Shown here: in pieces, positions 16,709 through 19,926 of the stretch
Position numbering within the stretch: position 1 is the stretch's first letter
Layout of the letters: every line of letters begins with the position of its first letter
Source of the DNA: an uncultured Candidatus Micrarchaeota archaeon
GTDB lineage: Archaea; Micrarchaeota; Micrarchaeia; Burarchaeales; Fermentimicrarchaeaceae
Reading direction: 5' to 3'
Assembly (NCBI GenBank): GCA_963760615.1
Contig: CAVXDX010000013.1
Location: 19,826 to 83,825, forward strand
Length of the DNA: 64,000 bases
Notes under the pieces: model-generated
The model's input: the letters and a program-made list of their open reading frames with translations, nothing else
The model's database searches: none
What the model was told of the DNA's origin: nothing
Position numbers and translations under genes: made by a program

Positions 16709-16721
16709 CGCGCAAGCAGGC

Positions 16722-16868
16722 TCATATGCTTTTTATACCTGCATAAGCGTCATCCTTCTCTTCTTGCAACAGCCTCTCAACCCTCATTATCACCTTATCA
16801 TTCTTGAACTCAAATCCAAGGGAGAAGTGCTTGCCGTCAAATATCTCCGAAATATTTTTATATAACAT
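16722..16868 (-). CDS. putative 48-aa ORF (MLYKNISEIFDGKHFSLGFEFKNDKVIMRVERLLQEEKDDAYAGIKSI)
   Basis: Manual translation; ATG at 16868 with GGGG SD-like element; protein-like composition; below ORF-track cutoff. Confidence 0.5.
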   Translation of the reverse strand: MLYKNISEIFDGKHFSLGFEFKNDKVIMRVERLLQEEKDDAYAGIKSI

Positions 16869-16901
16869 ATCCCCAATCTCCATATTAATCAACTCCGTTT
16901 T

Positions 16902-16945
16902 GAGGAGCTCGGGTCATCGGCGATCAAACTGGTCCGAGCTTCCTC
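16902..16945. other. GC-rich stem-loop GAGGAGCTCGG...CCGAGCTTCCTC
   Basis: 11-bp stem with one bulged T in an AT-rich intergenic region. Confidence 0.6.
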
Positions 16946-16963
16946 CTATTTTTTACTTGAGCA

Positions 16964-17566
16964 TCACCTGTTAATTGAGTAATATCGTATATAGCTTGGT
17001 CCCTCACCTTGTGGATATGATTTCTCACTCATCACAACTGCCCCCTCTCTTTTCAATTGCTCGCAAGCTAAATGGATCTTATCATACCATTCCCGCCTAT
17101 CTTTTTTACTCATTACATTCAAGTCCATACCTGCAAAAATTCCGAGAATTGAGAGTTGCTTGTCAGACTGTGCCAGCACATCCAAAATCATTTTCCTGAG
17201 ATTCTTTGAAACATCAACACATCTTCCTCCATCTTCCCTACATATTACTTCGATTGGTATATTCACTCTGTCTTTTCTTTTCTCTATCTGCTTTGCTGTT
17301 GCAAGTCTTTTACAATCGAAAATAATTTTTGTAGGTTTTAGATGCAGTCCCTTTGTCATATTTTTAAAAGTCTGGCTCCCGAACCCGGAGTTTTCAACTT
17401 CAATGAATATCTTCTCTTCTCCTCTCTCCAAAACACAGTCAATAGAATCAGTTGTTTTGTCATCCACTTTAAATTCTTTTGTGCACTTGTAACCCAGTGC
17501 GATGCCTTTCTCGTACCAGTCCTGCACAATTGCTGTGTGCTCGTCGCTCATCAGTTTCAACTCCAT
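16964..17566 (-). CDS. putative PD-(D/E)xK-like nuclease with C-terminal wHTH-like domain
   Basis: GYKCTKEFKV...SIDCVLERGEEKIFIEVE resembles restriction-fold motifs I-III (E in place of K); C-terminal ILDVL...LACEQLKREG...YYSI is wHTH-like. Confidence 0.6.
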   Translation of the reverse strand: MELKLMSDEHTAIVQDWYEKGIALGYKCTKEFKVDDKTTDSIDCVLERGEEKIFIEVENSGFGSQTFKNMTKGLHLKPTKIIFDCKRLATAKQIEKRKDRVNIPIEVICREDGGRCVDVSKNLRKMILDVLAQSDKQLSILGIFAGMDLNVMSKKDRREWYDKIHLACEQLKREGAVVMSEKSYPQGEGPSYIRYYSINR

Positions 17567-17790
17567 ACCTACACATCTAGCAACACATTGCCTACATGTA
17601 GGGTTATAGAGGTGCTTATATATAAAGTTTTCGTTTTGTGTGTATCTAATGTGTAGTCTTTTATGTAGTAGTTCAGGTCCGTGTGTAAGTTTTCCATTAT
17701 ATCATACAATTTACAATACACAGTACCTATTTAATCGAAGGCAAACATTTATAAATTTCCATACACATATACCTACACGTGTGATACACA
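17567..17790. repeat. cluster of TACACA/TGTGTA short repeats and palindromes in divergent promoter region
   Basis: Exact hexamers at 17570(+), 17639(-), 17650(-), 17682(-), 17717(+), 17762(+), 17785(+); perfect palindrome CCTACATGTAGG 17591-17602; ACACGTGT 17775-17782. Confidence 0.7.
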
Positions 17791-18683
17791 TGACGGACAA
17801 TCCATTCAGCATGACGCCGATTGACAAGCCTGAGGAGTTCATCGGCTATGCAAAGGAGAAGGAGGAGCTTGAGAATTCCTTAACTGAGGCAGGCGTTACT
17901 CTTGTGCTTTCTGACATGGGCTTTGGAAAGTCCTCCCTTGTCCGGGTTCTTGGGCATGATGGGAAAGGAATTTATGTTGAGAGATGCACGAAGGACAAGC
18001 TTTACTCTGCACTTAGGCAACATATGAATGCTTTTGACCGGCTGCTGGGCAAGGATCCTACTGATGTTGTGAGCAGGCCGGTTTTCGTTGATGAGTGCGC
18101 AGCTATGGTGCCCGAGCTCGCCTCAACGTTCAATAACATGCATGACAGAGGAGTCAAGATTGTGCTCTCGCTCACGCATGACGAAAGGGCGGAGCTCGAG
18201 AAGCACCCAGTAAACAAAACTCTTTTTGATAGGGTTACAAAAACTATAATCCTTAACGGGCTGACGAAGGAAGAAGTTGTCGAGCTGATTAAGCAGAGGG
18301 CTGATGCTAAATTCACTGATAAGGCAGTTGAATTTATCTCTGGAAAATTCAGGAAGCCCAGGGATATTGTGAGAGTATGCCACAACCTCTGGAATGAGAT
18401 GGAGAAAAATGGAAAAGAAAAAGTAACCGAGGATATGCTTGGCTTCGTTCTTCCTGAAATTAAAACTAGAGAAGTAGTTGGTGGAGAGAAATCCCAGAGA
18501 ATACTCGATTATATTAAAAATAACCCCGGGGCTAAGAGAGGGGAAATTGCCGATGCACTGAAGATGAATCCAAACAGCGTAACGAATTTGCTGAAATTGT
18601 TAATGGAGAAGCATTTGGTTACGAGAACTGCCGACTTCAAGCACTATGCGGCTGGGTCGGGCGGTGAAGGGAAGAAAGAATGA
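17790..18683 (+). CDS. AAA+/archaeal ATPase with C-terminal HTH
   Basis: NPF...P...FIG start, Walker A SDMGFGKS, Walker B VFVDE, sensor-2-like KPRDIVRVC, C-terminal ILDYIKNNPGAKRGEIADALKMNPNSVTNLLKLL HTH; start MTDNPF at 17790. Confidence 0.85.
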   Translation: MTDNPFSMTPIDKPEEFIGYAKEKEELENSLTEAGVTLVLSDMGFGKSSLVRVLGHDGKGIYVERCTKDKLYSALRQHMNAFDRLLGKDPTDVVSRPVFVDECAAMVPELASTFNNMHDRGVKIVLSLTHDERAELEKHPVNKTLFDRVTKTIILNGLTKEEVVELIKQRADAKFTDKAVEFISGKFRKPRDIVRVCHNLWNEMEKNGKEKVTEDMLGFVLPEIKTREVVGGEKSQRILDYIKNNPGAKRGEIADALKMNPNSVTNLLKLLMEKHLVTRTADFKHYAAGSGGEGKKE

Positions 18684-18800
18684 GATAGAAGTCTAGACTA
18701 CAATGTTCAAGTGCTGATGCAAAAGACAGTAAAAACATATGTATGGTCTACCATACAAATCATAAGGAATAAGTTGTACTGAATCTAGGTCATTGCCGCA

Positions 18801-19170: not shown

Positions 19171-19926
19171 CTATTTTTTGTACGCCTTTACTTTGACACT
19201 TGTAATTTTTCCACGCAGTATGCCAGTTAACTCAGACTCATGAAATGCATTCTGGGAAACGATTTTTACATTTCTGAACCCTGCTTTTCTTATTGTCCCT
19301 ATATATTTCCTTTTCTCTAATGCTCCAGCAATGCACCCCGCCCAGGCAGCAGAGCTTCTCCTGAGTTTTTCAGGCAGTTCTCCCTCACTAACGAGGTCGG
19401 AAATCAAAACCCTTCCGCCCGGCTTTAAAACCCGGTAAGCTTCTTTGTATGTCCGCAGTTTGTCTGGAGAAAGATTGATGACGCAATTGCTGATGATTAC
19501 ATCAACAGAATTATCTTCAACAGGCAAATTTTCAATTTCCCCGACTCTAAATTCGACATTTTTGTATCCGTATTTTTTTGCTGTTTTATTGGCCTTTTTT
19601 ATCATTTCTTCCGTCATGTCAACCCCAATGACATAACCTCTTGGCCCTACTTTATTTGCAGCCAAAAATACATCAATTCCTGCACCTGCTCCCAAATCCA
19701 AGACAGTTTCTCCCTTCCTTAAATCTGCCAGTGCTGTTGGGTTTCCGCAACCCAAGCCCATAACTGCTTCTTTCGGTATTTTTCCTAGCTCTTCCTCAGA
19801 ATAGCCTATTCTCTTTGCTTGTTCGGTTGCATCATAACCGCATGGGCCGCAAGTCGGGCAACAGCTAGTGCCCTCCTTAGCAATTCGGGAATATCTCTCC
19901 TTTACAATTTCTTTTATTTTTTCCAT
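19171..19926 (-). CDS. arsM: arsenite S-adenosylmethionine methyltransferase
   Basis: SCC N-terminus, LGCGNP, VLDLGAGAGID, SNCVINL, WAGCIAGAL. Confidence 0.93.
   Translation of the reverse strand: MEKIKEIVKERYSRIAKEGTSCCPTCGPCGYDATEQAKRIGYSEEELGKIPKEAVMGLGCGNPTALADLRKGETVLDLGAGAGIDVFLAANKVGPRGYVIGVDMTEEMIKKANKTAKKYGYKNVEFRVGEIENLPVEDNSVDVIISNCVINLSPDKLRTYKEAYRVLKPGGRVLISDLVSEGELPEKLRRSSAAWAGCIAGALEKRKYIGTIRKAGFRNVKIVSQNAFHESELTGILRGKITSVKVKAYKK

Follow-up and report, generated by a model that had tools for sequence, protein, structure and literature searches.

In a chromosome of an uncultured Candidatus Micrarchaeota archaeon we describe a small cassette whose two main genes, P1 and P2, are divergently transcribed from a spacer filled with short repeats; P1 encodes a 200-amino-acid (aa) protein with a restriction-fold nuclease domain and P2 a 297-aa AAA+ ATPase with a C-terminal winged helix. 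The cassette lies in a 64,000-nucleotide stretch, the window, of contig CAVXDX010000013.1 (C13; positions 19,826 to 83,825 of the forward strand; assembly GCA_963760615.1), which belongs to a genome of 1.14 Mb. We favor, at a probability of about one half, the reading that the cassette serves the maintenance or replication of archaeal mobile elements, as an iteron-type module that regulates itself and has an accessory nuclease. The copy in this chromosome is, we conclude, a captured and still-selected one and not the remains of a whole element. The genome of the window is called G000, the other genomes of the genus G001 to G005, and the compared loci carry the prefix L.

The 224-bp spacer between P1 and P2 holds seven of the window's 18 TACACA hexamers within 216 bp, a cluster that is unique in the genome, other 250-bp stretches carrying at most three. 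In an alignment with five relatives, the boxes and both TATA-like elements were invariant and the AT-rich spacer was variable. For P1 as for P2, boxes lie 3' of the TATA-like element and ahead of the start codon, at sites from which a bound protein would be expected to block transcription initiation, and a GTGAT Shine-Dalgarno-like motif lies 5' of the P2 ATG. About eight TGTGTAG repeats spaced at 9 to 13 bp (~11 bp) stand upstream of the 59%-identical P2 homologs of L004 and L008, and the six compared P2-family lineages each have upstream repeats of their own, L005 and L040 excepted (Table 1). Lineage-specific sites that change with the winged-helix protein are the pattern that would be expected of a protein binding its own locus. 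The layout agrees with that of an iteron module, with short repeats in helical register beside the gene and sites overlapping its promoter. A separate array, of four GAACCAAT repeats at 11-bp spacing, was seen in L050 (positions 520 to 570), upstream of the gene of P0033, a member of the P1 family; because this gene has its own upstream repeats and no AAA+ neighbor, the nuclease-winged-helix proteins may themselves bind repeat arrays.

The second open reading frame (ORF) of the pair, when opened at GTG, spans 17640 to 18683 on the plus strand and encodes 347 aa. We rejected this start: all homologs begin with MTDNPF, the 50-codon extension crosses the promoter and the repeats, and the true start of P2 is therefore the ATG at 17790. 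The existence of both ORFs, claimed in an earlier reading of this DNA from its sequence only (the sequence-only reading), was otherwise borne out. The P2 model (pLDDT 80) consists of an AAA+ core, a helical lid, and a winged helix, the last matching MarR/HTH_24 at residues 235 to 282 of 297. Its Foldseek matches were RuvB, Orc1/Cdc6 proteins (2qby_A, 1w5t, 1fnn, and 2v1u), and the archaeal ATPases 2qen and 2fna, at a TM score of ~0.6; the Orc1/Cdc6 matches had TM scores of 0.51 to 0.62 and E values of about 1e-9 to 1e-10, with RuvB equal in score, and the P2 sequence profile reached only 2qen (E 1e-4). Searches of P2 in Pfam, NCBIfam, PHROGs, and PADLOC gave only the C-terminal MarR/HTH_24 winged helix and subthreshold P-loop matches. 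Invariant in seven P2 homologs, down to 49% identity, were NPF, the Walker A motif SDMGFGKSS (GxGKSS), the Walker B motif VFVDEC (FxDEC), the arginine of FDRV, and RKPRD. The ATPase motif set (Walker A and B, arginine finger, and sensor 2) is intact, and judged by these motifs P2 looks like a working, oligomerizing ATPase. The invariant NPF and Walker motifs, together with the MarR/HTH_24 match, agree with the earlier description of P2 as an NPF-type AAA+ ATPase with a C-terminal helix-turn-helix.

We also considered P2 as the cell's own replication initiator. The genome has four canonical Orc1/Cdc6 genes (C3:111237-112451, C4:36515-37603, C8:58238-59365, and C14:69465-70595); P2 therefore does not fill that role, and the candidate was rejected. 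The C8 copy adjoins a restriction-modification gene pair with 76% DNA identity to a pair in the mobile element at L002, and because of this resemblance the C8 copy may itself be part of an integrated element. At L005:8001-10437 (GCA_040960315.1), in a chromosomal setting, there is a P2 homolog of 413 aa (50% identity) with a long extension at the C terminus, and its stop overlaps the start of the next gene, of 400 aa and ORC-CDC6-like/ATPase_2 type; no TACACA-type array was seen upstream of this homolog.

The AlphaFold model of P1 is confident over residues 1 to 110 (pLDDT ~96), with an alpha-beta-beta-beta-alpha-beta-alpha-beta topology in which the alpha-beta-beta-beta-alpha-beta core of restriction endonucleases is present. 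AF1548 (1y88; Z 11.0) and NucS (2vld; Z 9.0) were the top structural matches, with VC1899, Can2, Card1, R.BspD6I, McrC (Z 7.6), BglII, OkrAI, BamHI, and Hjc further down; the leading fold matches are mostly PD-(D/E)xK nucleases, and the nuclease domain of Avs4 was also among the neighbors. The predicted fold confirms P1 as a member of the PD-(D/E)xK superfamily and of no described family within it: no match was found in Pfam (E up to 1), NCBIfam, PHROGs, or PADLOC, and P1 falls outside NucS_C (PF01939). The nuclease fold on which the sequence-only reading had staked its proposal for the 200-aa protein is thus upheld by a confident model and by nuclease structural matches. An exhaustive profile search of 1.84 billion representatives returned only 26 relatives of P1, the shared part being the N-terminal 110 to 120 residues. 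In an alignment of 24 family members, D43 is invariant and H10, G21, E31, E56, E58, N69, K72, and P78 are nearly so. The motif reads D43...E56-x-E58, with a glutamate at the position of the canonical catalytic lysine. In BamHI the active site is D94/E111/E113, likewise with a glutamate at the third position. A survey of the PD-(D/E)xK superfamily shows the BamHI-type active site among its active-site variations (PMC3424549). Catalytic competence of P1 is plausible on these grounds. As to the winged-helix-like tail that had been proposed for P1, it is clear in one family member, P0033, which has an unambiguous HTH_24/MarR_2 tail; in P1 itself, the C-terminal ~80 residues are poorly modeled (pLDDT 50 to 78), and the resemblance of residues 118 to 200 to the Scc1-C winged helix (Z 6.4) is under the level that the tool treats as meaningful.

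Across the compared loci, an AAA+ gene adjoins a P1-family gene in five of seven informative lineages. P1 and P2 are divergent in the clade of the window; at the loci of P0005, P0015 (L042), P0016 (L045), and P0017 (L046), the AAA+ gene lies 1 to 2 nt upstream of the P1-family gene in the same direction. Three of the four operonic ATPases were compared with P2 by hhalign; each aligned along its whole extent, NPF motif through winged helix, at probabilities of 97%, 95%, and 82%. Full-length homology thus covers three independent loci, which are virus- or plasmid-like. The co-occurrence of nuclease and ATPase that the sequence-only reading had asked to be checked was therefore found, and the divergent layout that it described is not the usual one: elsewhere the pair commonly forms a co-directional, apparently translationally coupled operon. 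The two exceptions in the P1 family are L006, where the homolog sits between HEPN/NTase and ParE/MazE toxin-antitoxin pairs, and L050, which has no AAA+ neighbor.

Nor did the nuclease prove to be a fixed partner. The divergent side of the P2 gene holds only an s56 homolog (s56 being the third gene of the cassette) and a relic of the P1 start codon in L002 and L003 (P2 identity 85%) and a gene of 51 to 61 aa in place of P1 in L004 and L039; L005 has a P2 homolog without P1, and a NucS_C-type nuclease takes the place of P1 in L008 and L041. The C-terminal domain of the L008 nuclease aligns with that of P1 (E 9e-5) and its catalytic core with the P1 family profile. In the close relatives L001, L036, L037, and L038, P1 is cut to 154 or 102 aa. 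At the DNA level, what L002 has in common with the window is exactly the repeats and P2 (78% nucleotide identity); the breakpoint falls within the P1 start. That P1 is missing, swapped, or shortened where the repeats and P2 persist points to the repeat array and the ATPase as the conserved mobile core and to the nuclease with its DNA-binding tail as a frequent, optional partner. At the L002 junction itself (L002:7766-7768), the ATG that corresponds to the P1 start is followed at once by a stop codon (ATG TAG), and homology to the window ends ~20 nt into P1; we read this junction as the footprint of P1 loss or of recombination between promoter and gene.

The settings of the relatives point to mobile elements. 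L004 adjoins TraC-like, VirB4/TraG-like, and type IV secretion system (T4SS) pilin genes, and L002 is surrounded by a HerA-like ATPase, restriction-modification genes, a tyrosine integrase, and Kiwa. The L042 contig consists of 18 co-directional and mostly unknown genes, including Mom, TRAM, and an endonuclease VII-like gene, and its ATPase gene follows the largest intergenic region of the contig. Around the window copy, no defense island was found: the neighbors (among them a 7TM sensor, a KaiC-like protein, glutaredoxin, a SAM-dependent methyltransferase, and HSP20) include no defense genes. The sequence-only reading had left the choice between a defense and a replication module. Because of the lineage-specific arrays, the T4SS and integrase neighbors, the virus-like contigs, and the absence of a defense island at the window, the comparison suggests replication or maintenance, with defense retained only as the main rival.

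At its insertion site the cassette is an accessory element. Two genomes of the same genus, G004 and G005, have an empty site with ~50 bp between the gene of a Cys-rich secreted protein and that of glutaredoxin, against 2.1 kb in the window, and we therefore regard the cassette as an accessory insertion. Of the six genomes of the genus, three have the P2 gene, G000 among them; it was not found in any of 55 further relatives. The AT-richer island seen earlier was reproduced, with a GC content of 0.37 to 0.40 over 16750 to 17750 against 0.45 to 0.51 in the flanks. Only s56, P1, and P2 are encoded in the cassette, with no DDE transposase ORF, and its ORF listing contains no methyltransferase or integrase, as had been stated. 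Direct repeats flanking the cassette were not noticed when the junctions beside the empty sites were read, no repeat search having been run across the boundaries, and a tRNA scan and Rfam search (E up to 1) around the cassette returned nothing relevant, the cassette therefore being without a tRNA attachment site. Both P1 and P2 are real genes under purifying selection: compared with G001 (dS 0.45 to 0.9), dN/dS was 0.055 for P2, 0.086 for s56, and 0.24 for P1, and the estimates overall ranged from 0.055 to 0.083 for P2 and from 0.24 to 0.28 for P1.

The same site in G002 holds an s56 homolog and a different gene of 399 aa, of the AAA_22-winged-helix type, with TTGTATGG repeats of its own. A palindrome 3' of P2, of the form TGTATGGTC(T/A)ACCATACA, matches these operator-like repeats, and a near-identical palindrome, TGTATGGTCAACCATACA, belongs to the repeat set in the promoter of the G002 gene (L033:2650-2727). 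The palindrome 3' of P2 is probably a relic of cassette replacement. The alternative AAA+ gene and the surviving palindrome together point to the insertion site as a hot spot where AAA+-winged-helix cassettes would have replaced one another.

Two further features of the cassette lie 3' of P1. The small protein s56, which has no family match, is present in G001, G003, L001, L037, L038, and G002, and a 37%-identical homolog is directly divergent from P2 in L002. A comparison of s56 with the 51- to 61-aa type of L004, L008, and L039 did not establish homology (E 0.0064, probability 6%), and the two are positional analogues only. Between P1 and s56 lies a 44-nt hairpin, GAGGAGCTCGG...CCGAGCTTCCTC, with a T-run behind it on the plus strand. 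Its sequence does not differ (100% identity) among G000, G001, G002, L001, L036, and L038, where the flanking genes are only 75 to 90% identical; the gene that precedes it in G002 is the unrelated 399-aa AAA+ gene. The hairpin folds at -21 kcal/mol (z about -1.7 to -2.0), occurs once in the genome, and matches nothing in Rfam. A terminator, an RNA element, and a recombination joint are its possible identities. A second insertion-deletion difference was seen beyond the cassette, at 19171 to 19926, where the gene of the SAM-dependent methyltransferase lies between those of glutaredoxin and HSP20; in L001 and G002, glutaredoxin is directly followed by HSP20 with no methyltransferase between them, and the closest G002 copy is ~290 kb away.

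Table 1 Features of the cassette in window coordinates, with P1 domain residues and the lineage-specific repeats of compared loci.
Feature	Position or locus	Strand	Detail
Accessory cassette (~2.1 kb)	16709..18800	.	Between stop of Cys-rich secreted-protein gene (16708) and stop of glutaredoxin gene (18801)
s56, small conserved protein, 56 aa, 3' of P1	16722..16892	-	ATG 16883 is the likelier start
Hairpin element, 44 nt	16902..16945	.	Between P1 stop and s56 start
P1, 200 aa: PD-(D/E)xK nuclease domain and winged-helix-like C-terminal domain	16964..17566	-	ORF
P1 nuclease domain	Residues 1-112		E31, D43, E56xE58, K72
Divergent promoter region with repeat array	17567..17789	.	Spacer between P1 and P2, ~224 bp
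TACACA boxes (n=7)	17570, 17639, 17650, 17682, 17717, 17762, 17785		In P1/P2 spacer
Palindrome CCTACATGTAGG	17591-17602		In P1/P2 spacer
TATA-like box for P1	17615-17627
TATA-like box for P2	17748-17758
P2, 297 aa: AAA+ ATPase, lid, and MarR-type winged helix	17790..18683	+	Start ATG 17790
Palindrome TGTATGGTCTACCATACA	18740..18757	.	3' of P2
Repeat upstream of ATPase gene	L039		ATGTGTGC
Repeat upstream of ATPase gene	L046		GTCAGTT
Repeat upstream of ATPase gene	L045		ATATACCAAT
Repeat upstream of ATPase gene	L042		TAAGAC
Repeat upstream of ATPase gene	G002 (399-aa AAA+ gene)		TTGTATGG

The model that we propose takes P2 to be a sequence-specific DNA-binding AAA+ protein whose presumptive sites are the TACACA/TGTGTAG repeats, about one helical turn apart. 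P2 would bind the boxes through its C-terminal winged helix and oligomerize on the array with ATP, and its binding would repress both divergent promoters. In the plasmid or integrative-conjugative relatives, P2 would mark the maintenance locus of the element; of its candidate roles, iteron-type replication initiation appears the likeliest, closely followed by partition or copy control. P1 would cut or resolve DNA at or near the locus bound by the ATPase. A bolder extension holds that P2-type proteins form a new, non-Orc family of AAA+ replication initiators that serve plasmids, viruses, and integrative-conjugative elements in DPANN and other archaea. Each would have a coevolving iteron array, many would be coupled to an origin-processing restriction-fold nuclease, and the window copy would be a captured origin-initiator cassette swapped at one hot spot; we consider this extension unlikely.

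Several observations count against a maintenance or replication role. The boxes are placed as simple autorepressor operators would be, and the data therefore do not require such a role. The window copy is strongly selected without other mobile-element genes, and a function that benefits the host, such as defense, fits this equally well. The distant homologs of L005 and L040 have no obvious arrays, and that of L005 lies among chromosomal genes beside another AAA+ gene. Searches of P1 and P2 by tblastn in PLSDB plasmids and INPHARED phages gave no match, and scans of IMG/VR for relatives (queries A1 and A2) found none. The GC skew of C13 shows no inflection at the cassette; archaeal GC skew is often flat, and this last result is therefore weak evidence.

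Defense or addiction is the leading competitor of a maintenance module, and we hold it to be possible though doubtful. On that account the cassette would be a two-component conflict system, by analogy to McrBC or to AAA+/STAND-nuclease systems, in which P2 senses or translocates on foreign DNA, P1 is the effector, and the repeats are a mere operator. The 1- to 2-nt gaps between ATPase and PD-(D/E)xK nuclease genes in four independent loci fit such a system, as do the McrC, Can2/Card1, and Avs4 nuclease domains among the structural neighbors of P1, the small AT-rich island in a variable hot spot, the solo P1 homolog between toxin-antitoxin pairs, the restriction-modification and Kiwa genes near L002, and the strong purifying selection on P2 in a chromosome without other element genes. 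The proposed effector, however, is the dispensable part, lost, swapped, or shortened while P2 stays intact; long, repeat-rich intergenic regions 5' of the ATPase genes are atypical of defense operons; and the window neighbors are of other kinds. PADLOC gave no significant model for P1, for P2, or for any nuclease of the operonic pairs, and the operonic ATPases matched only generic AAA models (mad8, AbiO, and IetA; best E 7.6e-8). The sequence-only reading had recognized no named system in this architecture, and none emerged: the best E value for P1 and P2 in PADLOC-DB 2.0 was at least 0.0017, and no Pfam, NCBIfam, or PHROG name fits the pair. The glutamate of P1 in place of the canonical catalytic lysine also speaks against an effector, although it would be compatible with activity as in BamHI.

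The remaining explanations fare worse. An ordinary autoregulated transcription-factor locus, in which P2 and perhaps P1 would regulate s56 or other host genes, would account for the MarR-type winged helix, for the boxes overlapping both promoters, and for the array in front of the solo P0033 gene; we find it decidedly improbable, because the site cluster is unique in the genome and there is hence no regulon, because a full AAA+ motor, arginine finger and sensor 2 included, exceeds the needs of a repressor, and because the distribution is patchy and tied to mobile elements. A Tn7-like transposon relic, with P1 as a TnsA-like nuclease with a winged helix and P2 as a TnsC/TniB-like AAA+ regulator, has analogous architectures to recommend it (in one protein a restriction-type nuclease fold ending in a winged helix, in the other an AAA_22-like ATPase whose N-terminal NPF motif is in the ExeA/TniB style), and a preprint reports Tn7-family elements in archaea (bioRxiv 10.1101/2025.07.27.667033). 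With no TnsB DDE transposase, TniQ, or terminal repeats in or beside the cassette (ORFs and junctions read), no Pfam match to TnsA_N, TnsA_C, TnsC, or TniB at E up to 1, and TnsA not within the top 50 structural matches, we give this relic very little credence. We think it just as far-fetched that the cassette is a decaying, functionless remnant of an integrated element: its tiny size, the lack of an integrase, and the shortened P1 of four close relatives would suit decay, which the selection on all three genes contradicts (dS 0.65 to 0.9 for the P2 and s56 estimates) and with which intact ATPase motifs and conserved promoter boxes do not agree.

To our knowledge, the replication and maintenance of DPANN mobile elements are almost uncharted, and we know of no genetic system for Micrarchaeota. 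The cassette is a compact and testable unit of ~220 bp of repeats and one 297-aa protein, and it has been passed among a chromosome, an element with an integrase, and a conjugative one. As a replicon or maintenance module it would be a candidate backbone for the first DPANN vectors and would represent a new initiator family with a nuclease partner; as a defense system it would be a new ATPase-nuclease type. Either way, it would offer a functional lead into the AAA+-winged-helix proteins of archaea, a large, uncharacterized class in which PD-(D/E)xK domains are a recurrent companion.

Among known systems, McrBC likewise combines an AAA+ protein and a restriction-fold nuclease in two genes, and McrC is a structural neighbor of P1. 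P1 and P2 differ from it in having no McrB or McrC family match, in a C-terminal winged helix as the presumed DNA binder where McrBC has an N-terminal reader domain, in a dispensable nuclease, and in ATPase genes that each have an upstream repeat array. The C-terminal domain of NucS/EndoMS (PF01939) and AF1548 are the best structural neighbors of the N-terminal domain of P1, and the L008 partner of a 59%-identical P2 homolog passes PF01939 with 34.7 bits against a 24-bit cut-off; P1, unlike NucS, has no Pfam match, carries E58 in place of the ExK lysine, and lacks the NucS N-terminal domain. The ATPase_2-DUF234 (COG1672) and AAA_14-DUF4143 (COG1373) fusions share with P1 and P2 the combination of an Orc-like AAA+ module, a winged helix, and a PD-(D/E)xK domain, and we take 2qen (a Pyrococcus Walker-type ATPase) and 2fna (a Sulfolobus AAA+ ATPase) to be members of this archaeal ATPase-fusion group. 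DUF234 and DUF4143 have both been classed as PD-(D/E)xK families (PMC3424549). In these proteins the parts are fused in one chain, whereas the nuclease of the cassette is a separate gene with its own winged helix; hhalign showed no relationship of the P1 or the P2 profile to an ATPase_2-DUF234 protein.

For the ExeA-like AAA_22 ATPases (COG3267), defined by an N-terminal FG(L/F)xxxPF and a following AAA_22 domain, P2 is an uncertain candidate: its NPF motif is invariant, its operonic relatives carry a fuller N-terminal motif, W(Y/H)xx(F/Y)(G/N)(F/W)xxxxPF, and one P2 homolog has been named ExeA by JGI. AAA_22 is not significant in P2, and in precomputed Pfam lists each of the three operonic relatives has it only as a weak or faint match, its cut-off being passed only by the 399-aa gene of G002, which has no P1 partner. 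From Orc1/Cdc6, P2 differs in being ~100 aa shorter, in having no Cdc6_C or AAA_22 Pfam match, and in bearing the NPF motif where the four paralogs of the genome share an N-terminal P(D/E)Y.P..L.HRE; the repeats of the cassette type measure 6 to 8 bp at ~11-bp spacing, against the 20- to 35-bp ORB elements of Orc1/Cdc6 origins, and the origin role here is putative. The likeness of the cassette to Orc1/Cdc6 and to iteron Rep/origin modules extends from the protein, with its AAA+ core, lid, and C-terminal winged helix, to the DNA, where the gene lies beside short, mixed-orientation repeats and an AT-rich spacer and where, as in autoregulated Rep genes, the sites overlap its own promoter.

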